From contig JAYUSS010000131.1 in NCBI GenBank assembly GCA_043755535.1, forward strand, positions 10,829-74,828: DNA of 64,000 bases, in the 5' to 3' direction. The translations under genes were made by a program, and so were the position numbers. Under the pieces are notes generated by a model. That model was not told the DNA's origin. It made no database searches and saw only the letters and a program-made list of their open reading frames with translations. Of the stretch, positions 19,911 through 46,522 are shown piece after piece. This DNA comes from Candidatus Peregrinibacteria bacterium (lineage in GTDB: Bacteria; Patescibacteriota; Gracilibacteria; Peribacterales; Peribacteraceae). Numbering within the stretch: position 1 is the stretch's first letter; each line of letters starts with the position of its first letter.

Positions 19911-20864
19911 CTAAGCGGAGAACGAGAATGAAACCGGGAGCTTGCTGCGTACCCCGACAATCGTGCCGGCAAAAGAGAGCACGGGAATCACAACAATCTG
20001 GACGAGCAGGAAAATCGGAAGAGCGGTGTACAAGAGTGGAACTGCTTCACTCTGGAGCGCGCGGAAGGGCGCTTCGAGGGCGAACGCAGGCATAAAGACC
20101 GGCAACAAGAAAAGAATCGTGCCCATCAGAAGCGCCGCGATGACCGCAGCTGCAAGCAGGAGTACGGTCATCTCGAGCGCAAAGGGCAAAAGCACGTTGA
20201 ACGATGTTGCCCCCAGCAAGTGCGCCAGCCGCGGTTCATGGCCACGCCTGGCCGCCGCGCGCGAAACCCACTCAAACACCGCCGCGCAGAGCAGTAAAAA
20301 CATCACGATCATAAAGACGATACTGAGCGTCGTCAGCCCATCAGTCACTTGGAGGAGGGTGCGGATTTCCTGTTCGTGATCAGCCCCTGCAGTCAAAAAT
20401 GAGGGGTCCACCACCTGCTTCCAGCGGCTCATCTGCAAATCTGCGGCCAATGCGTTATACGATTCGAGCGAGGTGAGCGTCACCGAAAACACATCGGGGA
20501 AGGGGTTATCGAAATCGTACTGCTCCATGAATGCTATGTCTTCAGGGTGCAATGCTTTTTGTCGCTCATACACCTGTTCTTTTGAGAGGAATGAAACTTC
20601 TCGAACCGACGGATGGATGCGTAGCGCCGCATATAGTTCCTGAATATCCTGCTCCCGTGCCGTCGACAAAACCTCCAGCTGCAACGCGGAACGATCGGTC
20701 AGCAAATGCGTAACCGCCCGCACTCCCACCAGAAACGTGAAGAGCATCTGGGCCAAGAGCATGAGACACACCAGCATCGCTAACGTGAATCCCGATGATC
20801 TGTCCCGCCGTAGATGGAGCAAGACACGACTGAGTAGCGGGCCAATGGCACTGACAGAGGACAT
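19911..20864 (-). CDS. ftsX: Cell-division ABC-transporter permease FtsX-like
   Basis: One N-terminal TM, a periplasmic-type domain, and three C-terminal TM helices (FtsX topology). No ftsE is present in the window. Confidence 0.6.
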   Translation of the reverse strand: MSSVSAIGPLLSRVLLHLRRDRSSGFTLAMLVCLMLLAQMLFTFLVGVRAVTHLLTDRSALQLEVLSTAREQDIQELYAALRIHPSVREVSFLSKEQVYERQKALHPEDIAFMEQYDFDNPFPDVFSVTLTSLESYNALAADLQMSRWKQVVDPSFLTAGADHEQEIRTLLQVTDGLTTLSIVFMIVMFLLLCAAVFEWVSRAAARRGHEPRLAHLLGATSFNVLLPFALEMTVLLLAAAVIAALLMGTILFLLPVFMPAFALEAPFRALQSEAVPLLYTALPIFLLVQIVVIPVLSFAGTIVGVRSKLPVSFSFSA

Positions 20865-32620: not shown

Positions 32621-33126
32621 ATGAACGAAGCTGCGGATATCGCCGGCTGCATTGCGTATATTGATGGCGCGAATCTCCATAAAGGGGTTCAGAGTTCGGG
32701 CTGGAACATGGACTATAAAAATTTTACCACTGGCTTTCTGCCAAGTACCGGACAGAGCGTATAACTATTTTCCTTGGATATATTGCCAAGCATCAGCCTC
32801 TTTACGACACATTGATTGATATTGGTTACAACCTGATATTCAAGGAGGTCACCACACAGAGTGGGCATATTAAAGGAAACTGCGATGCAGAAATGGTGTT
32901 GCACACAGTGAGTGATTTCTATGAAAATAAGCTCACAAAAGCAGTCATTGTCACAGGTGACGGTGATTTTGCTTGTCTCATAGATTTTTTACAAAAGCAC
33001 AGCGTGTTTCATCGACTCATTGCTCCCAATTTGCAGTATACTTCTTACCTTTTACGGAAGCGCAATCTTCCTATTGTGTATCTGGAGAATCCGCGCCTTA
33101 TTCCTCACATACAAAAAGACCCCTGA
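32621..33126 (+). pseudogene. NYN/LabA-like (DUF88) domain gene with a 1-nt frameshift in an A5T4 run
   Basis: Frame 1 (ATG 32621) gives ..CIAYIDGANLHKGVQSSGWNMDYKNF and stops at 32762-32764. The rest (FYHWLSAKYRTERITIFLGYI..GNCDAEMVLH..VIVTGDGDFACLIDFL) is open in another frame from 32719. The switch must lie within 32717-32725. Confidence 0.7.
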
Positions 33127-34747: not shown

Positions 34748-34791
34748 GGGAGAAACTTTAAGGAATAGCCAAAGTATGCAATAGTAAAAGC

Positions 34792-36246
34792 ATGTTCGAG
34801 CAAGCCTTTAAAAACATCGATGATATTCTGCGGAAAGATGCAGGGGTGAGCTCAGAACTTGATTATATTGAGCAAACATCGTGGATACTTTTCTTGAAGT
34901 ATTTGGAAGATTGGGAGGAAATGAAAAAGAAGGAAGCGGATCTTTCGGGAACGATGTACCGCGAAATTATCCATACGCCTTTTCGGTGGGAAACATGGGC
35001 GGTTCCTAAAGGGCCAGATGGGAATCCAGATCATACCAAGGCAATGACTGGTGATGACCTTCTCGATTTCGTGAATGATCAACTCTTTCCATATCTTAAG
35101 AAGTTTAAAATTGATGCTGAGAGTTCCGATACGATCCAGTATAAGATCGGCGAAATTTTTAGTGAATTGAAGAATAAAATCCAAACCGGATATACGCTGC
35201 GTAGTATTCTTGATGTTGTGGATAAGATGCACTTTCAAACAAGCGCAGAGAAACATGAATTATCTCACCTCTATGAAAGCAAAATTAAGAACATGGGAAA
35301 TGCCGGGAGAAATGGAGGAGAATACTACACACCACGCCCACTTATTCGTTCCATTATTAAAGTCGTTGATCCACACATAGGACAGACTATTTATGACGGT
35401 GCATGCGGTTCTGCAGGGTTTTTAGTCGAGGCTTTTGATTATTTAAAGGAGACGAAAGGTAAAAAATTAAGCACCGATGATCTGGAGACTCTCCAGAAAA
35501 AGACATTCTTTGCAAAAGAGAAGAAGTCCTTGGCATACATCATTGCCATCATGAACATGATTTTGCATGGTATTGATGCTCCGAATGTCGTTCATACCAA
35601 TACGCTGGCAGAAAATATTTTGGATATTCAGGAGAAGGATCGTTACGACGTGATTCTTGCGAACCCGCCGTTTGGGGGGAGTGAGCGCCCGGAGATTCAG
35701 CAGAACTTCCCGATTAAAACAGGGGAAACTGCGTATCTCTTTTTGCAGCATTTTATCAAGAAGCTAAAAGCAGGTGGCAAAGCAGGTATTGTTATTAAAA
35801 ATACATTTCTTTCGAATACAGATAACGCGTCCGTTTCGTTGCGTAAGTATCTACTGGAGAGCTGCAACCTGCATACGGTGCTAGATCTTCCGGGTGGAAC
35901 CTTTACCGGGGCAGGAGTGAAAACGGTGGTGCTATTTTTTGATAAAGGAGCACCGACAAAAAAGGTGTGGTATTACCAATTAAATTTGGATAGGAATTTG
36001 GGGAAGACAAATGCATTAAGTGAGAAAGACCTAGCAGAGTTTATAGAGTTACAGAAGGCGCAGGGTAGTTCTGCAAATTCATGGAGTGTAGATGTGGGTG
36101 ATGTTGATCAATCGACATTTGATTTGTCAGTGAAGAATCCGAATGCAAAGGGAGAGGTGGAGTTGAGGGTTCCCAAAGAGATTTTGGAGGAGATGAAGAG
36201 GCTGGATGAGGAGACGACTAAAATTTTAAGCATTATTTTGAAATGA
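34792..36246 (+). CDS. hsdM: Type I restriction-modification system, methyltransferase subunit
   Basis: HsdM N-terminal domain (FKNIDDILRKDAG..EQTSWILFLKYLED), AdoMet motif (YDGACGSAGFL), and NPPFGG catalytic motif (ILANPPFGGSE). Confidence 0.95.
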   Translation: MFEQAFKNIDDILRKDAGVSSELDYIEQTSWILFLKYLEDWEEMKKKEADLSGTMYREIIHTPFRWETWAVPKGPDGNPDHTKAMTGDDLLDFVNDQLFPYLKKFKIDAESSDTIQYKIGEIFSELKNKIQTGYTLRSILDVVDKMHFQTSAEKHELSHLYESKIKNMGNAGRNGGEYYTPRPLIRSIIKVVDPHIGQTIYDGACGSAGFLVEAFDYLKETKGKKLSTDDLETLQKKTFFAKEKKSLAYIIAIMNMILHGIDAPNVVHTNTLAENILDIQEKDRYDVILANPPFGGSERPEIQQNFPIKTGETAYLFLQHFIKKLKAGGKAGIVIKNTFLSNTDNASVSLRKYLLESCNLHTVLDLPGGTFTGAGVKTVVLFFDKGAPTKKVWYYQLNLDRNLGKTNALSEKDLAEFIELQKAQGSSANSWSVDVGDVDQSTFDLSVKNPNAKGEVELRVPKEILEEMKRLDEETTKILSIILK

Positions 36247-37445
36247 GTACTACTCCAAAGATTGGGTGGCGAACTAAAGGTTTAAGTGAACTTTCAAGTG
36301 TATTCACTGATGGTGATTGGATTGAAAAGAAAGATCAATCCATTGATGGAATTAGACTTATTCAAACTGGCAATATTGGGAATGGCTTGTTTAAGGACAG
36401 AGCGGAGAAATCTCGGTATGTTTCCGAGAAGACATTTAAAAAATTGAAATGTACGGAGGTATTTGAGAGCGATTGCTTGGTGTCTCGTCTGCCCGATCCC
36501 GTTGGAAGGGCGTGTATCGTTCCAGTGATCCAAGAAAAGTTAATAACCGCAGTAGATTGCACAATTATTCGATTTAATAATATTGATATTTTGAATAATT
36601 GGTTTATCTATTACTCACTTTCTCAGGAATATCAAAATCAAATAAATAAGGAAATTTCAGGTTCAACAAGACAAAGAATTAGTAAAAAGAACTTGGCTCA
36701 AATTCAAGTTCCTCTTCCACCACTTCCCGAACAACAACACATCGTCACCATCCTCGACGAAGCCTTTGTCGCTATTGAGAAAGCAAAGAAAAATACGGAG
36801 AAGAATTTGGAGAGTGCGAAGGAGATTTTTGAGTCATATCTTCAAAGTGCATTTAGTAATGATACTTGGGAAGCGGTATCACTAGCACAAGTTTGTGAAA
36901 TTTCTTCAAAGTTAATAGATCCTCGTGAGTATCGTTATTCTGATCTACTACATGTTGGAGCGGGCAATATTGAAATAAAAAGTGGAAGACTCCTTAAGTT
37001 ACAAACTGCAATAGATGAGAGACTTATATCAGGTAAATTTTTGTTTGATAAATCGATGGTTTTATATAGCAAGATTCGCCCGTATCTAATGAAAGTTGCT
37101 CGACCTGATTTTTCAGGCTTATGTAGTGCGGATATTTACCCATTATCCCCTAATCCAAATAAAGTAATTAGAGATTATTTGTATTATCTATTGCTGACAT
37201 CAGATTTCACCCATTACGCCATTAAAGGTTCGGGGAGAGCGGGCATGCCTAAAGTAAATAGGGATCACCTTTTTTCCTATAAATTCAACTTAGCACCATT
37301 GGCAGAGCAGCAAATCATAGTCAGTAAACTCAATATGATTTCGCAAGAATGCAAAAAACTCGAATCCCTCTACCAACAAAAAATTGCAGGCTTGGAGGAA
37401 CTCAAAAAATCTTTACTCAAAAAAGCTTTCGCTGGTGAACTGTAA
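36243..37445 (+). CDS. hsdS: Type I restriction-modification system, specificity subunit
   Basis: Two target-recognition domains separated by conserved helices (LPPLPEQQHIVTILDEAF.. and LAPLAEQQIIVSKLNMIS..). Overlaps the hsdM stop by 4 nt. Confidence 0.9.
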   Translation: MSTTPKIGWRTKGLSELSSVFTDGDWIEKKDQSIDGIRLIQTGNIGNGLFKDRAEKSRYVSEKTFKKLKCTEVFESDCLVSRLPDPVGRACIVPVIQEKLITAVDCTIIRFNNIDILNNWFIYYSLSQEYQNQINKEISGSTRQRISKKNLAQIQVPLPPLPEQQHIVTILDEAFVAIEKAKKNTEKNLESAKEIFESYLQSAFSNDTWEAVSLAQVCEISSKLIDPREYRYSDLLHVGAGNIEIKSGRLLKLQTAIDERLISGKFLFDKSMVLYSKIRPYLMKVARPDFSGLCSADIYPLSPNPNKVIRDYLYYLLLTSDFTHYAIKGSGRAGMPKVNRDHLFSYKFNLAPLAEQQIIVSKLNMISQECKKLESLYQQKIAGLEELKKSLLKKAFAGEL

Positions 37446-37465
37446 TTCTCTTCCTTTTTCCTCCT

Positions 37466-37843
37466 ATGAACATCAGCGACAAAGACCGGGAAATGCTCTG
37501 GGGCGAAGACGAGCCGTATTCGGAGGCGAAGATTGTGATGAATACGAGAATATTGGGAGATCATGTGTCTCGCGTGATGTTGGAAGTTGAGGGCAATATC
37601 AACCCGACGACGTTTAAAATCATCAAGTAACACAAGCATTTGTTTGCGGATCAACCGATGGTTATAGAACTGTTGGAAACAGCCCGATATTTTGGCAAAG
37701 GTGACGGATATCAAGTTTCCGCAGGGGTGGAAGAACTGACAGATGACCCGCAAGTGATGGAGAGAGCCAAGGTAAAACTGCGCTACATGAAAGATGCCAT
37801 GATTGTGATGCATGAGTTTGTGATGGAGTATTTGGATACGTAA
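37466..37843 (+). other. Small ORF pair in one frame separated only by TAA (37628-37630): either a 125-codon gene with an in-frame stop or two mini-ORFs
   Basis: ATG 37466 gives MNISDKDREMLWGEDEPYSEAKIVMNTRILGDHVSRVMLEVEGNINPTTFKIIK, then TAA, then HKHLFADQPMVIELLETARYFGKGDGYQVSAGVEELTDDPQVMERAKVKLRYMKDAMIVMHEFVMEYLDT. No recognisable family. Confidence 0.4.
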
Positions 37844-37864
37844 ATCTTTGTAAATGAGCATTTT

Positions 37865-37888
37865 AGCCATTAAAAGTGGCTTATTTTT
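37865..37888 (+). terminator. Intrinsic terminator after the small ORF(s)
   Basis: agccaTTAAAAGtggct followed by tattttt. Confidence 0.6.
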
Positions 37889-37920
37889 ACTATTGCGTGT
37901 GCCACTCCCAAAAATGGGTT

Positions 37921-38949
37921 ATGATGCCAACCATGCGCTTCCCACGTTCCAAAAAACTCCTGTTTACCAATAATAAGGGGGGTGTTGGTAAAACGACGCT
38001 TGCTTACAACTGCGCGGTTTCATTTGCGCAGCAAGGATACAAGACGGTGCTTGTCGATTTGGATCCTCAATGCAATCTCTCCCGTTTGGCATTGGGCGAT
38101 ATGTTATTTGAGCAAACGCTTTTTTCATCCTCAGAAAAAGACATGTACGAAATTCTTAAGGGAGTGGTGGAAGGAGGAGCGGATGTGGATGTTTCCGCGC
38201 CATTGATCCCCGTCCACAGTGCCCCCAATTTATTTTTGATCAAAGGGAGTGTGAACCTGTCCCTCTACGAAAACATTCTGGTGACCGCGTACGGTCAAGC
38301 GGCCGCAGGAGAGCGACTGGGGTATTTTCAAACGAGTGCGATCGATCGATATTTGCGCGAACGCGGGTTGAATGATGAAGTGGATATTTTCGTCATTGAT
38401 ACTTCTCCCAGTCTATCGCTTTTAAATCGAATCGTTTTTTTGGGTTCGGATTACTTTGTAGTACCCATGATGCCGGATGCGTTTAGTGTCCAGGGTATAG
38501 AGAACCTCGGGATCGTTTTTGAAAAATGGAAAAATAACTGGAAAATAACTGGCAAGGCGCTCTCGGGTGAAACGGAGAATAAATTTGTGCTGTCCGGAGA
38601 CGGTCTTTTTATCGGGTATGTCGTTAATTCCTATAATGTCTATGCTGAACAACCGATCAAAGACCATAGACACTGGATTGAGGAAATTCCAAAGAAGGTA
38701 AGACAGTTTCTTTCTGAAAAACATGGTAGGAATGGACTTGTGGAAAAGAGCTGGGTTGCTCCTCTTGCTGAAATTCAAGATTATGGGAGAATTCCTGCAA
38801 AGTGTCAGGAACTTGGCGTTGCCATTTTTGATCTTGATCCGAAACTTATAGAAGATCACCACCAGGGAACAAAGGAGAATATTGAAAAATCAAAAGAAGA
38901 GTTTTCGCATTTATCAGCGGAAATTTTGAAAATATTGCATGCATACTAA
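37921..38949 (+). CDS. ParA/MinD-superfamily ATPase with extended C-terminal region, embedded between hsdS and hsdR
   Basis: Deviant Walker A FTNNKGGVGKTT, VLVDLDPQCN, and Walker B IFVIDTSPS. ATG 37921 is preferred because the GTG at 37876 lies inside the terminator hairpin. The stop is 8 nt before the hsdR ATG. Confidence 0.8.
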   Translation: MMPTMRFPRSKKLLFTNNKGGVGKTTLAYNCAVSFAQQGYKTVLVDLDPQCNLSRLALGDMLFEQTLFSSSEKDMYEILKGVVEGGADVDVSAPLIPVHSAPNLFLIKGSVNLSLYENILVTAYGQAAAGERLGYFQTSAIDRYLRERGLNDEVDIFVIDTSPSLSLLNRIVFLGSDYFVVPMMPDAFSVQGIENLGIVFEKWKNNWKITGKALSGETENKFVLSGDGLFIGYVVNSYNVYAEQPIKDHRHWIEEIPKKVRQFLSEKHGRNGLVEKSWVAPLAEIQDYGRIPAKCQELGVAIFDLDPKLIEDHHQGTKENIEKSKEEFSHLSAEILKILHAY

Positions 38950-38957
38950 GCCCGGTC

Positions 38958-41276
38958 ATGAACGAATCTGAGACCAGAGCAGAGCTAATAGACCCCAAGC
39001 TTCACATGAGTGGTTGGGGTGAAGTCGAGGGTTCTAAAGTTCGTCGTGAATATTTGATTGCGCCCGGAAAAATTGAAGTAGGAGGAGCTCCGAGAAAAAG
39101 GGAGATTGCCGATTATATTTTAGTCTATAACAATCAAAACGTTGCTGTTATTGAAGCGAAGTCCGCAGGGCTGGACGCTTCAGAAGGCGTGGCACAGGCA
39201 AAGGCTTATGCAGAAAAGCTGCGTATTGATTTTACGTACGCGACGAATGGTAAGGAGATTTATGAAATTTCAATGAGTACGGGCAAAGAGAAAATGGTCG
39301 ATTCATTCCCGACGCCACAAGAACTTTGGAAGAGGCTATACCCAGATGCGAACAATTGGCGCGATACATTCGATGCGGTGCACTTTGAAAAAATGTTCGG
39401 GGAAATAGGTCCGCGTTATTATCAAGAAATTGCAGTGAATAAAACTCTTCATGCAATTGCAGATAATAAAAATCGGATACTCTTAACATTGGCAACAGGT
39501 ACAGGAAAAACGGTTATTGCCTTCCATATCGTATGGAAGCTTTTCCAGTCGCGTTGGAATTTGCAGAAAGACGGCGGTCGTCGGCCACGTATTCTCTTCT
39601 TAGCCGATCGCAATATTCTTGCAGATCAAGCCTTTAATACGTTCACAGCATTTCCAGAAGATGCCTTAATCCGCATTAGCCCATTGGATATTCGTAAAAA
39701 GGGTGCGGTTCCAACAAATGGCAGCATCTTCTTTACGATTTTCCAAACTTTCATGAGTGGGCCAAAGGGCACGCCATACTTTGGGGAATATCCGCCCGAC
39801 TTCTTCGACTTTATTATTGTCGATGAGTGTCACCGCGGAGGAGCGAATGACGAGAGTAACTGGCGGGGAATTTTGGAATATTTTTCACCTGCTGTTCAAC
39901 TTGGTTTAACAGCTACGCCAAAACGAAAGGACAATATTGATACCTACAAATACTTCGGTGATCCGATCTATATTTATTCTCTGAAAGAAGGAATCAACGA
40001 TGGCTTCCTGACACCATTTAAGGTGAAGCGTATCCAGACTACATTGGATGAGTACGTGTATACATCCGATGACACTATTGTTGAAGGTGAGGTTGAGGAA
40101 GGGCGCATTTATGAGGAAGAAGATTTTAATAGAATTATCGAAATTAAAGAACGTGAAGAAAAACGTGTGGAAATCATGCTTGAAGAAATTAATCAGCAAG
40201 AAAAGGCAATTGTCTTCTGTGCCAGTCAGTCACATGCGGCTGCAGTCCGTGATTTAATCAATCAGCGTAAAAAGAGTGCTAATCCCTATTATTGTGTGCG
40301 TGTCACTGCGAATGATGGAGAAAGAGGTGATCAGTACTTGCGGGAATTTCAGGACAATGAAAAGAGTATCCCCACTATTCTCACAACATCGCAGAAGCTC
40401 TCTACAGGAGTCGATGCACGGAATGTACGAACGATCGTACTCATGCGACCGGTAAATTCCATGATCGAGTTTAAGCAAATTGTTGGTCGCGGCACACGAT
40501 TATTTGAGGGAAAAGAGTATTTTACGATTTTGGATTTTGTTGACGCCTATAAGCATTTTTCAGATCCCGAATGGGATGGAGAGCCCTTAGATGAAACTAC
40601 TGAACGTGAACCACGAATTCCTGATGATTCCGAACCAGAAGAGGTGTTGGATGGGCCCTTTATTGATGAGGAAGAAGAGGAAAAACCAAAGAGGCTGAAA
40701 ATTAAATTGCGTGACGGTAAGGAGCGAGAAATCAAACATATGATTTCCACTTCATTTTGGGGCGCAGATGGTAAACCTATTTCGCTGCAAGAATTCATGG
40801 ATAATATGGTTGGAGCAATGCCAAATTTCTGTAGTTCGGAAGAGGAATTACGACAGATCTGGTCTCAGCCATCTACCAGAAAAGCCTTCCTGGAAAAGCT
40901 CGCTGAGGCGGGATATGGCAGAGATCAATTGGAAATGTTGCAAAAGGTCATTGATGCAGAAAATAGTGATCTGTTCGATGTTCTTTCGTACGTGTGCTTC
41001 TTAGTTCAGTGCCTAACCAGAGAAGAGCGTGTTACAAAAGCCAGTACAGACATCTATACCGGTCTTGATACTAATCAAAAAGACTTTCTTGAATTCGTCT
41101 TGTCCAAATACATCGATCAGGGCGTTGATGAGCTTGGTGAAGATAAATTGCCCAAGCTGCTCAATCTTAAATATCAGGCAATTGCAGATGCAGAGAAGGA
41201 ATTAGGGAGTGTCGATAAAATTCGATCGATGTTTATTGGGTTTCAGAAGTTTTTGTATAAACCGAAGTTTGCCTGA
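38958..41276 (+). CDS. hsdR: Type I restriction enzyme, restriction (helicase-nuclease) subunit
   Basis: N-terminal nuclease domain (ETRAELIDPKL..ADYILV..VIEAKS), SF2 motifs (LATGTGKT, VDECHRG, TSQKLSTGVDA, QIVGRGTR), and an EcoEI-R-type C-terminal domain. Confidence 0.9.
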   Translation: MNESETRAELIDPKLHMSGWGEVEGSKVRREYLIAPGKIEVGGAPRKREIADYILVYNNQNVAVIEAKSAGLDASEGVAQAKAYAEKLRIDFTYATNGKEIYEISMSTGKEKMVDSFPTPQELWKRLYPDANNWRDTFDAVHFEKMFGEIGPRYYQEIAVNKTLHAIADNKNRILLTLATGTGKTVIAFHIVWKLFQSRWNLQKDGGRRPRILFLADRNILADQAFNTFTAFPEDALIRISPLDIRKKGAVPTNGSIFFTIFQTFMSGPKGTPYFGEYPPDFFDFIIVDECHRGGANDESNWRGILEYFSPAVQLGLTATPKRKDNIDTYKYFGDPIYIYSLKEGINDGFLTPFKVKRIQTTLDEYVYTSDDTIVEGEVEEGRIYEEEDFNRIIEIKEREEKRVEIMLEEINQQEKAIVFCASQSHAAAVRDLINQRKKSANPYYCVRVTANDGERGDQYLREFQDNEKSIPTILTTSQKLSTGVDARNVRTIVLMRPVNSMIEFKQIVGRGTRLFEGKEYFTILDFVDAYKHFSDPEWDGEPLDETTEREPRIPDDSEPEEVLDGPFIDEEEEEKPKRLKIKLRDGKEREIKHMISTSFWGADGKPISLQEFMDNMVGAMPNFCSSEEELRQIWSQPSTRKAFLEKLAEAGYGRDQLEMLQKVIDAENSDLFDVLSYVCFLVQCLTREERVTKASTDIYTGLDTNQKDFLEFVLSKYIDQGVDELGEDKLPKLLNLKYQAIADAEKELGSVDKIRSMFIGFQKFLYKPKFA

Positions 41277-41282
41277 AAACAG

Positions 41283-41615
41283 TTAATTCCTTATTTTTTC
41301 TCGTACAGACTTCACCCACTCCTGCCCCTTATCCCCACCCCACAGTAACCACGCAATAAACCCATTGCTTGGTTTTTCCGGGTTAAAGAAATTCTTACCT
41401 CGTTTATCTACCTCATGTCGGGCGAAGTAGCTGTACATGCGGGCGATCGTTCGTGCAGAAACCGGCTTACCTGCAGCCAAGTGTTCGGCCATGGCTAACC
41501 CTACTTCGGTGCCGCCGCGTTTGAATATTTTACGCAGATCTAGTCCGCGTGAGGCTTCGAGGGAAACTTCCGGTGGGGGAATGAATTCCTGCTTGTGATG
41601 CTTTAGTGAGTTCAT
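41283..41615 (-). CDS. Small conserved-looking hypothetical protein
   Basis: 110 aa; ..RGGTEVGLAMAEHL..ARMYSYFARHEVDK..NGFIAWLLWGGDKG.. This reminds me of a small domain seen in phage/mobile-element proteins, but I cannot name it reliably. Confidence 0.45.
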   Translation of the reverse strand: MNSLKHHKQEFIPPPEVSLEASRGLDLRKIFKRGGTEVGLAMAEHLAAGKPVSARTIARMYSYFARHEVDKRGKNFFNPEKPSNGFIAWLLWGGDKGQEWVKSVREKIRN

Positions 41616-41646
41616 TGAAGGCAGTATATACCTTTTATTTTGAGTA

Positions 41647-41708
41647 GTTTACAATAGAGTTTACAATAAAAAAACATGAGGTTACAATAGAGTTTACAAT
41701 AAAAAAAC
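41647..41708. promoter_or_regulatory. Two 28/29-identical direct repeats (GTTTACAATAGAGTTTACAATAAAAAAAC vs GGTTACAATAGAGTTTACAATAAAAAAAC) in a divergent promoter region
   Basis: 41647-41675 and 41680-41708, which gives four TTACAATA boxes between the divergent genes at 41615 and 41727. Confidence 0.6.
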
Positions 41709-41726
41709 TTACGCTATACTTTGTAT

Positions 41727-42746
41727 ATGGACCAAAAAGTCGACATCGTCACGTTTATTTTAAAGCAGCGACATATCCGATCGCGCGATATTGTCGCAAA
41801 GTTCGGTGTGACTCGGCAGTATGCATCAAAATTACTCCGTGAATTGGCTAAAAAGGGTATGTTGGTTAAAACAGGTGCTGCACGTTCGTCCTGCTATGTG
41901 TTGCCTAAATATGCAAAGCCGGAGGGGGAGATCGTACGTCGGTATCGTATATCTAGCCTGAAAGAGCACGAAGTACTGGAGGAAGTGGAAGAACGATCTT
42001 CGTTCATGCCTTCTTTGCCTGATAACGTGCGAAGCATCTTCCAATATGCTTTTTCCGAGATGCTCAATAATGCAATTGATCACTCGAAATCTGTAAATGT
42101 AGAAATATGTGTGCGAAAAAACAAGAATCTGATATTTACAGTCAATGACGTTGGTATAGGTGTTTTCCGCAATATCATGAAAAAAAGAAAGCTGAAGTCG
42201 GAACTCGAAGGCGTGCAGGATCTTTTGAAAGGAAAAACCACTACGCAACCCAAAGCCCATTCCGGAGAGGGGATTTTTTTCACATCCAAGATCGCGGATG
42301 TTTTTAGTCTTGAGAGTTATGGATACAAGCTGACGATTGATAATCGCATTGATGATGTGTTTTTCGAGGAGCAAAAGCCGTCCAAGCGTGGAACAAAAGT
42401 TACCTTCGAAGTTGCCAGTACGTCACAAAAACATTTGAATGATTTATTCAAGCAATATCAAACCAACCCATCGGATTTTGCATTTGATAAGACGGAAGTT
42501 CGAGTGAAGCTCTATACCATGGGCACAATCCATGTTTCACGGTCGCAGGCCAGACGGGTACTGTCAGGCCTCGAAAAATTCAAATCCATCGTTCTTGATT
42601 TCGACCAGGTCCCCAATGTCGGCCAAGCGTTCGCGGATGAAATTTTTCGCGTATTTTTCTCCAGGTATCCCGATATTCAGATTCAACCAGTGAATATGAA
42701 CGAGACGGTGCAATTTATGGTCCAGCGTGCGATGAATTTCTCATAA
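41727..42746 (+). CDS. wHTH + GHKL (HATPase_c) ATPase + C-terminal STAS-like (DUF4325-type) domain protein
   Basis: N-terminal wHTH (IRSRDIVAKFGVTRQYASKLLRELAKKGML). N box EMLNNAIDHS, G1 box NDVGIGVF, G2 box SGEGIFFTSKIAD. C-terminus IVLDFDQVPNVGQAFADEIFRVF is typical of DUF4325. Confidence 0.65.
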   Translation: MDQKVDIVTFILKQRHIRSRDIVAKFGVTRQYASKLLRELAKKGMLVKTGAARSSCYVLPKYAKPEGEIVRRYRISSLKEHEVLEEVEERSSFMPSLPDNVRSIFQYAFSEMLNNAIDHSKSVNVEICVRKNKNLIFTVNDVGIGVFRNIMKKRKLKSELEGVQDLLKGKTTTQPKAHSGEGIFFTSKIADVFSLESYGYKLTIDNRIDDVFFEEQKPSKRGTKVTFEVASTSQKHLNDLFKQYQTNPSDFAFDKTEVRVKLYTMGTIHVSRSQARRVLSGLEKFKSIVLDFDQVPNVGQAFADEIFRVFFSRYPDIQIQPVNMNETVQFMVQRAMNFS

Positions 42747-42858
42747 CACACCCCATCACAAATCCCCCCATTCATCCAGCCCACTATAAGAAGGGTCTAT
42801 TGAACAACCAAAGTGTTCAACTGTAGCATCACACCGTTCATTTCCACCCACATTAACC

Positions 42859-45775: not shown

Positions 45776-46522
45776 TCACGCGATACCGAGAGTTCCGAGA
45801 GACTCTTCTGTGTGGTCCAAGAATTCTTTATAAAGTTTGTAGTGCCCTGTCTCGTAGTAGGGGACTTCCTGGTATCCGTCTTTCGAAAGAGAGTAAATCG
45901 TTGCATGCGGGTACGAGAGAAGAATGGGGGAGTGTGTTGCGATAATAAATTGACAGTCCTGCTCGGTGAGTTCATGCAGCCGCTGTAAGAGTTCCATCTG
46001 GCGCTTGGGCGAGAGTGCGGCTTCCGGCTCATCCAGTAAGTACATCCCCTTGCTGCGGAAGCGGTGATGAAAGAGCGCAAAAAACGATTCACCGTGCGAT
46101 TGTTCGTGGAGCGACTTGCCGCCGTAGTAACTTTTTATGGACGGCCCGGAGTCTGGCTCACGGTCCAGCTCATCGATATTCGTTGCGAGGTTGTAGTAAC
46201 TCTCGGCACGCAAAAAATAGGCATCCTCTGCACGCTTTACTCCTTTGGCGATGCGGATGTGATTATGAAGAGGGGAATGAGATTCTTGGGTTGCGAAATT
46301 GAAGTTCCGAGATCCACCTTCTGCATTGAGTCCGTACCGAAGGGCAATTGCCTCCATCAACGTCGATTTACCGCTCCCGTTTTCCCCTACTAAAAACGTC
46401 ACCTTGGGGTGAAACGTGAGTGTCTGTAAATGCTTTACCGCCGGCAAGTTAAAGGGATAGGCAGAACGATCGGGGATCGTGTCCTCTATTAGTTCTACGG
46501 AGCGGATGAATTGGGTGAGCAT
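45776..46522 (-). CDS. Stand-alone ABC-type (AAA_21-like) ATPase
   Basis: Walker A VGENGSGKST, signature-like SHGES, Walker B MYLLDEPEAALS, and H-loop IIATHSP. Confidence 0.75.
   Translation of the reverse strand: MLTQFIRSVELIEDTIPDRSAYPFNLPAVKHLQTLTFHPKVTFLVGENGSGKSTLMEAIALRYGLNAEGGSRNFNFATQESHSPLHNHIRIAKGVKRAEDAYFLRAESYYNLATNIDELDREPDSGPSIKSYYGGKSLHEQSHGESFFALFHHRFRSKGMYLLDEPEAALSPKRQMELLQRLHELTEQDCQFIIATHSPILLSYPHATIYSLSKDGYQEVPYYETGHYKLYKEFLDHTEESLGTLGIA

Follow-up and report, generated by a model that had tools for sequence, protein, structure and literature searches.

What does a ParA-like ATPase do between the specificity and restriction genes of a type I restriction-modification (R-M) operon? 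The question is raised by a 64,000-nucleotide (nt) stretch of DNA from a Candidatus Peregrinibacteria bacterium (contig JAYUSS010000131.1, positions 10,829 to 74,828), here called the window, in which hsdM, hsdS, two short open reading frames (ORFs) sharing one frame, a ParA-like ORF and hsdR follow one another in that order, all on the + strand. An earlier note on this DNA had coupled the ATPase to hsdR and proposed that it might regulate or localise restriction, act in abortive infection or be left over from plasmid partition. We find it fairly likely that the ATPase is instead an autonomous cargo gene, lodged between hsdS and hsdR, in a slot open to many kinds of cargo, within a type I operon acquired by horizontal transfer, and that it is neither a subunit nor an obligate partner of HsdR.

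We searched 5.8 billion proteins for relatives of the ATPase. More than 100 clusters of 338-340 amino acids (aa) and 75-91 % identity were found across phyla of the candidate phyla radiation (CPR), with cluster names such as Wolfe-, Pace-, Moran-, Kaiser-, Falkow-, Kerfeld-, Portnoy-, Shapiro- and Peribacterales bacteria; a more divergent branch of about 46-50 % identity occurs in Gracilibacteria. Gene neighbourhoods were compiled for 31 family loci besides the window (22 in GTDB genomes and 9 from look-ups, numbered with an L), their genes being called by a simple ORF heuristic. Eight of these loci (26 %) are embedded in or adjoin R-M genes and the other 23 have no R-M neighbour. In five (L001, L014, L016, L022 and L221; L014 is labelled Gracilibacteria) the ATPase lies in the hsdS-hsdR slot of a type I system that belongs to the family found in the window. 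At the three adjoining loci the ATPase lies directly upstream of hsdM (L216), two genes upstream of another type I operon (L010) or 25 nt after a type ISP-like enzyme (L021). A metagenome scan based on hsdR added two more embedded cases (L044 and L048), and the ATPase now occupies the hsdS-hsdR slot in eight distinct loci: the window, L001, L014, L016, L022/L038, L044, L048 and L221/L222. The linkage to R-M genes suspected from the single window copy is therefore recurrent.

A dedicated accessory subunit of HsdR would be expected to occur together with HsdR in both directions and to form a distinct R-M-linked subclade, and the ATPase does neither. About three quarters of its homologues are solitary. 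Mean identity is 80.5 % within the R-M-linked copies, 80.1 % between linked and unlinked copies and 80.7 % within the unlinked ones, and the linked copy of L022 is 91 % identical to the unlinked copies of L009 and L017 but only 82-84 % to the other linked copies. Judged by sequence, there is no R-M-linked subclade, and copies inside and outside R-M loci are indistinguishable. Seen from the side of the restriction enzyme, 3 of 80 metagenomic HsdR relatives (61-74 % identity) have the ATPase upstream and 77 do not. The hsdR tree, like our other trees a neighbour-joining tree on a near-star phylogeny, places the ATPase-bearing loci in the branch nearest the window, mixed with sisters that carry Fic, AbiJ, DUF3800 or RhuM genes or no cargo.

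The ATPase also outlasts hsdR. In L001, its closest relative (90 % aa identity), the ATPase is intact with a ratio of nonsynonymous to synonymous divergence (dN/dS) of 0.034 at a dS of 1.67, while hsdR is internally deleted and has lost roughly residues 34-428. In L216 the ATPase is followed by ATG AAT GAA TCA GAA ACA AGA GCG GAA TAA, which corresponds to the first nine hsdR codons and a stop (MNESETRAE-stop), and this junction (L216:6021-6135) looks like the fossil of a lost R-M cassette. Behind the stub, a T-run and a TATAAT box precede a different type I operon, hsdM-OLD/TOPRIM-hsdS, which begins there. Among the solitary copies, hsd remnants were found only at these two loci. Since the ATPase is intact beside a decayed hsdR in both, it is kept by selection without a working HsdR alongside. 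The proposal of a dedicated HsdR partner is thus not supported, on four observations: most homologues are solitary, nearly all HsdR relatives lack the ATPase, linked copies form no subclade and the gene persists after hsdR decay.

The neighbourhoods of the solitary copies vary widely and include SpoU/NTP-transferase, His-kinase/aminoacyl-tRNA synthetase, ATP synthase, MreBCD/PBP2, pyrG/L27/pyrH, Obg/RuvX/RbfA and glycosyltransferase genes. The gene downstream of most CPR homologues is variable or convergent, while in the window it is hsdR, and the downstream flanks show no conservation between loci. Only hsd genes and one gene pair recur next to the ATPase. This pair adjoins it in three otherwise unrelated loci (L002:6869-7897, L008:9084-10209 and L020:5128-6262); we considered AbiE for it and rejected this, as Pfam identifies a family 2 (GT2) glycosyltransferase and a DUF2304 protein. 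We also noted a motif, TTCTAACATCGTC[TC]ACGACT, 10-80 nt past the ATPase stop in L005, L009 and L017, which belong to different lineages. The ATPase is not flanked by direct or inverted repeats of the kind expected at the ends of a mobile unit.

The GC content at third codon positions (GC3) of the ATPase lies below that of its neighbours (mean difference -0.075, Wilcoxon p = 0.0025, 20 loci) and is still correlated with it (r = 0.60). Identity is raised within taxa, at 83-85.5 % in Moranbacteria, 91 % in Magasanikbacteria and 90 % in Peribacterales compared to a mean of 80 %. Taken together, the low GC3 and the raised within-taxon identity suggest a mobile gene that often travels with R-M cassettes, for the most part between related hosts, and persists after transfer. 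We hypothesize that the family circulates among CPR bacteria, often within type I cassettes, and that it would outlive these cassettes when their R-M genes decay, leaving solitary copies.

The rival that survives best takes the ATPase to be a housekeeping orphan ParA of CPR bacteria, positioning cellular cargo or the chromosome, inherited largely vertically and repeatedly trapped in the R-M slot. The raised identity within taxa and the low dN/dS suit this explanation, as do the presence of the gene in Parcubacteria, Microgenomates, Saccharibacteria and Peregrinibacteria with its divergent form in Gracilibacteria, the mostly housekeeping neighbours and the lack of a close homologue on IMG/VR viral contigs (best match 31 % identity). 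There is, however, no obvious route by which a resident core gene would have entered a mobile operon in at least 6 lineages, and adjacency to R-M genes at 26 % of loci is far above chance. The systematically low GC3 speaks against it too, and the composition of the window copy matches its island and not its host: GC3 is 0.44 for the ParA gene, 0.44 for hsdM and 0.40 for hsdR (0.32-0.44 over the hsd genes and ParA), compared to 0.57-0.64 for the other genes in the window. We regard vertical housekeeping descent as rather unlikely.

The autonomous-cargo reading is in line with what else is found in this slot. More than 250 nt separate hsdS from hsdR in 35 of 63 loci of this R-M family, the intervening ORFs being mostly on the same strand, and more than 250 nt separate hsdM from hsdS in 19 of 47 loci. 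The cargo in the gaps includes Fic (7 loci), Schlafen/AlbA_2, RhuM, Bro-N, DUF3800, AbiJ, NucS/PDDEXK and HNH proteins as well as AAA_13, HATPase_c_3, Zeta toxin, M78 peptidase, RES and DUF559 families. In the window the slot holds two cargo genes, a broken 125-aa gene and the ATPase; in L016 it holds the ATPase and Fic. PrrC and the rlo genes of Campylobacter are known examples of genes embedded in type I loci. TgvAB is embedded at this site in VPI-2 of V. cholerae (PMC11411939), DarTG2 at this site in the RRDM island of enteropathogenic Escherichia coli, where the site was termed a potential recombination hotspot (PMC12255303), and Payne et al. describe thousands of genes embedded in BREX, DISARM and type I loci under the term 'guilt-by-embedding' (bioRxiv 10.1101/2024.01.29.577857). 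Our ATPase resembles cargo of the PrrC, rlo, TgvAB and DarTG2 type in that it lies in the same slot between hsd genes, on the same strand, in an operon-like arrangement, and recurs in independent lineages (eight loci). It differs in having no nuclease, toxin or modification-sensing domain, and in that its homologues lie mostly outside R-M loci, are unusually conserved and carry a promoter of their own by prediction.

This promoter bears on how the ATPase and hsdR are expressed. A hairpin with a T-run had been thought to separate hsdM and hsdS from a transcript carrying the ATPase and hsdR. The hairpin exists (37865-37881, 7 pairs, followed by TATTTTTACT), but we rejected it as a terminator and find the separation weak: the region holds 6 terminator-like sites versus 6.4 +/- 2.5 in shuffled sequences, which is no excess, and the fold z-score of the segment against shuffles is -0.86, both at chance level. 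Joint transcription of hsdR with the ATPase, the other half of the proposal, is plausible. A -10-like hexamer, matching in 5 or more of its 6 positions, has its end 5-11 nt upstream of the ATPase start codon in 23 of 25 homologous loci, compared to 0-5 of 25 at control distances. It often reads TGnTATAAT and ends 6-7 nt before the ATG, and it is the sole upstream feature that stands out by eye. Because the box is kept in 23 of 25 loci, the ATPase gene is predicted to carry its own promoter across contexts, and the spacing of the box predicts a leaderless transcript starting at the ATG. Only 8 nt and no terminator lie between the ATPase and hsdR, which makes read-through into hsdR plausible. 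The ATPase promoter would very probably also read into hsdR, and hsdR would then probably gain a second transcription start, independent of hsdMS. Elsewhere in this genome, -10-like boxes 6-8 nt before an ATG with no Shine-Dalgarno sequence are common (for instance at 19911-20864, 45776-46522 and 41283-41615, all three on the minus strand), which suggests widespread leaderless transcription.

To what kind of ParA does the gene belong? All homologues begin with M[KR]FPR[ST]KK (MRFPRSKK in the window copy), placing the start at ATG 37933 and giving a protein of 338 aa; a start at GTG 37876 was rejected, as all homologues begin at the position matching the ATG. The ParA/MinD-type motifs read earlier from the window are all present (NNKGGVGKTT, DLDPQ and IDTSPS). 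Over 33 aligned family members NNKGGVGKTT, a deviant Walker A with the signature lysine, is invariant, and so are VDLDPQ (switch I / Walker A') and FVIDTSP (Walker B). Foldseek ranks PDB entry 3pg5 first, followed by Soj, PF-32, delta, McdA and P1 ParA, with a probability of 1.0 for the first five of these, the query being an AlphaFold model of moderate confidence (shallow alignment, pLDDT 62, residues 228-313 low). Motifs and modelled fold together assign the protein to the deviant Walker A group of ParA/MinD (SIMIBI) ATPases.

The entry 3pg5 is DIP2308 of Corynebacterium diphtheriae, and family profile positions 9-305 align to its residues 4-320 (8.5e-28). On these sequence comparisons the ATPase falls into a DIP2308-like subfamily, apart from Soj and the type Ia/Ib partition ParAs. 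DIP2308 is the best match in both sequence and fold over nearly the full length, including the extra segments of the C-terminal third, while its identity to the ATPase is only about 28 %; being an uncharacterised structural-genomics protein, it indicates a subfamily and not a mechanism. Since profile and Foldseek both favour 3pg5, the extra length of the ATPase is common to the DIP2308 subfamily. The C-terminal extension of roughly 100 aa that had been suspected is not an appended domain: in our own mapping the canonical ParA elements reach the C-terminus, and the extra length would consist of internal insertions. The protein has no specific family in PADLOC, NCBIfam or Pfam beyond generic ParA/AAA_31. 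All NCBIfam matches lie far below the family cut-offs, and in PADLOC the sole match, and the only one to a known or candidate defence family, is that of its Walker-A stretch (residues 10-63) to PDC-M28B (3e-7), so that the protein is indeed unclassified there, as the earlier note had supposed.

Among known ParA/MinD ATPases, the orphan positioning proteins McdA, MipZ, PpfA, ParC and PomZ also come close. The window ATPase shares with these and with Soj the deviant Walker A with its signature lysine, the switch aspartates and the ParA fold, and it has no ParB adjacent to it; it differs in its extra insertions and in having no conserved neighbouring partner or cargo gene. By family analogy it is expected to dimerise as an ATP-dependent sandwich on a surface, most likely DNA, with hydrolysis as the off switch.

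More distant relatives suggest what such a switch may serve. Full-length relatives of 25-35 % identity occur in prophages, phages and plasmids. Plasmid relatives overlap a downstream gene that encodes a HEPN protein in Burkholderia glumae and a SIR2 protein in Vibrio ponticus (pVPon1), where a separate ParAB is present. In IMG/VR (L135-L214), long ParA-like genes are coupled at gaps of -4 to +9 to RelA_SpoT genes (toxSAS-like, 27 loci) and SIR2_2 genes (13 loci). The effector-coupled ATPases are DIP2308-like and 324-387 aa long (e.g. L162:6001-7745, L183:6001-7853, L128:3998-5637 and L129:3998-5853), their matches in PADLOC v2 do not go beyond the Walker A level, and we found no description in the papers searched of modules that combine a ParA-like ATPase with toxSAS, SIR2 or HEPN. 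From this coupling, ATPases of the DIP2308-like subfamily seem to work in mobile elements as the NTPase partners of toxic effectors. The CPR ATPase shares with these modules the long DIP2308-like architecture and the location in accessory or mobile regions. It differs in that their ATPases overlap the downstream effector by 4 nt while the CPR family has no constant downstream partner. Other relatives lie near the att end of a Pf1 prophage and near the integrase of a Helicobacter prophage. In the P22-like phages ST160 (a Salmonella phage; L120:3524-5077) and SE1, the c2 repressor gene is followed directly by a DUF3024 gene and a ParA-like gene; the DUF3024 gene matches the PADLOC candidate PDC-S43, and by analogy the position of the pair would be rexAB-like and expressed in lysogeny.

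On function we tentatively favour a conflict-related NTPase switch, serving defence or element stabilisation. This role is suggested by guilt by embedding and by the translational coupling of distant relatives to toxSAS, SIR2 or HEPN effectors. A cell-biological positioning ATPase is likewise possible, if somewhat less so, whereas a modulator of restriction would be an unlikely role.

Several points weigh against the autonomous-cargo reading. R-M genes at 8 of 31 loci, including another type I arrangement and a type ISP-like enzyme, are far more than random placement would give, and the cause of this excess could be a functional link with translocating restriction enzymes instead of shared mobility. 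The ATPase lacks an effector or toxin domain, and its conservation far exceeds that of typical defence cargo. The loci came from pattern-based scans and a handful of look-ups, with a possible bias toward relatives of the window copy. 'Solitary' describes the local gene neighbourhood, and a solitary copy could still interact in trans with an R-M system elsewhere in the genome. Finally, the promoter and its read-through into hsdR are predictions from sequence.

The next rival gives the ATPase a functional part in restriction, as partner or regulator: bound to the nucleoid as an ATP dimer, it would steer the HsdR translocase-nuclease by controlling, localising or triggering it, for example as a marker of self DNA or as a roadblock, in parallel to the NTPase-plus-effector pairs of the distant relatives. 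In its favour are the recurrent position right before hsdR (the gap is 8 nt in the window and likewise in L001 and L014), eight embedded loci in several CPR lineages, the proximity to other R-M types (L021, L010 and L216) and the 4-nt overlaps of relatives with SIR2, toxSAS or HEPN effectors. Against it stand the four observations given above, namely about 75 % of homologues without an R-M neighbour, no R-M-specific subclade, 77 of 80 HsdR relatives without the ATPase and purifying selection that continues after hsdR decay; in L016, moreover, Fic separates the ATPase from hsdR. Our literature search found nothing specific on a ParA-like partner of type I R-M or on a ParA-like defence ATPase. 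We consider a restriction partner unlikely. It is conceivable, as a bolder and still less probable proposal, that long DIP2308-like ParA ATPases form an undescribed class of NTPase switches that gate toxSAS, SIR2 or HEPN effectors in prophages and plasmids, with a single-gene version in CPR bacteria that would cooperate with type I and type ISP translocating restriction enzymes, for instance by coating self DNA or as a roadblock deciding where or whether HsdR cleaves. A remnant of a plasmid or chromosome ParABS system, which the ParA fold and motifs would allow, is highly improbable both as an origin and among the functions considered, since no ParB-domain gene occurs among the window neighbours or in the looked-up gene tables, the 64 kb hold 2 matches to canonical parS at 3 mismatches versus 1.7 expected and none near the locus (non-canonical centromeres were outside this search), strong purifying selection acts on the gene, which is unbroken, and its subfamily is not that of Soj or the type Ia/Ib partition ParAs. 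The condition under which the earlier note would have given up its idea, homologues never linked to R-M genes and sitting beside parB/parS instead, is not what the family shows.

Features of the restriction locus in the window
Feature	Coordinates	Strand	Evidence
hsdM, type I methyltransferase, 484 aa	34792-36246	+	Pfam HsdM_N and N6_Mtase; PADLOC MTase_I 4.9e-159
hsdS, specificity subunit, 400 aa, two target recognition domains	36243-37445	+	Pfam Methylase_S in two stretches; PADLOC Specificity_I
Conserved hypothetical gene, 125 aa, in-frame TAA at 37628-37630	37466-37843	+	32 full-length homologues
Hairpin and T-run, weak, between the 125-aa gene and the ATPase	37865-37891	+	7 pairs; chance-level
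-10 box TATGAT, 7 nt before the ATPase ATG, predicted leaderless-type promoter	37920-37925	+	Hexamer scan of homologous loci
ParA/MinD-class ATPase, deviant Walker A, 338 aa, DIP2308 (3pg5)-like subfamily	37933-38949	+	Pfam AAA_31/CbiA
hsdR, restriction/translocase subunit, 772 aa	38958-41276	+	Pfam HSDR_N_2, ResIII, Helicase_C and EcoEI_R_C; PADLOC REase_I 2e-138
Low-GC island	34750-42800		Composition profile: GC 0.37-0.45 versus 0.52-0.55 in the flanks

The layout in the table agrees with the earlier note in the 4-nt overlap of hsdM and hsdS, the end of the ATPase at 38949 and the 8 nt between its stop and the hsdR ATG (38958), and Pfam and PADLOC bear out a type I locus by identifying M, S and R. 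HsdR aligns full-length to its relatives, and the R-M system, with hsdM, hsdS and hsdR at one locus, is intact in the window as far as its sequence tells.

The small ORF noted earlier upstream of the ATPase is present but is not a gene of its own. The ORFs 37466-37630 and 37640-37843 are in one frame, split by a lone TAA at codon 55. The 125-aa product obtained by reading through it has homologues of 51-76 % identity, and codon comparison shows that these encode Lys (AAG/AAA) where the window has the TAA. The 125-aa gene is therefore disrupted by a nonsense codon or carries a sequencing error at this position, and the small ORF reads as its front half. The structure and family searches that had been suggested for it gave a confident AlphaFold model with a predicted alpha/beta fold (pLDDT 91), but no significant fold match in PDB or BFVD and nothing in PADLOC, NCBIfam or Pfam. 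In L123 a homologue of the gene precedes a Fic gene, in L126 one adjoins an HTH-Panacea gene, and in L127 only 12 nt separate one from the downstream hsdR of another type I system, of the EcoR124 type. It looks like a further island or cargo-type gene, the second cargo in the window slot.

Besides the entire hsd block and both cargo genes, the low-GC island holds two genes at its distal end (41283-42746): a minus-strand ORF of 110 aa that converges on hsdR and has no family match, and a gene for a 341-aa protein with winged helix-turn-helix, HATPase_c and DUF4325 (STAS-like) domains. Just upstream of the island, in a low-GC patch at 32621-33126, an NYN-domain gene is split into ORFs of 47 aa and 104 aa and is probably a frameshifted pseudogene.

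Embedding between hsdS and hsdR is now used for the discovery of defence systems ("guilt by embedding"), and a ParA-class ATPase is absent from the cargo types described. As it recurs in six or more branches of the hsdR tree, our ATPase is a concrete, testable candidate. If a DIP2308-like switch does act on HsdR, it would represent a new control of restriction in organisms with minimal genomes. Two further findings are an unusually conserved orphan ParA family across CPR phyla, self-promoted by prediction, and the pairs of such ATPases with toxSAS, SIR2 or HEPN proteins in prophages and plasmids, which are apparently unlisted in current defence catalogues. Should the ATPase prove irrelevant to restriction, the locus would still illustrate how cargo genes outlive the R-M cassettes that carried them.

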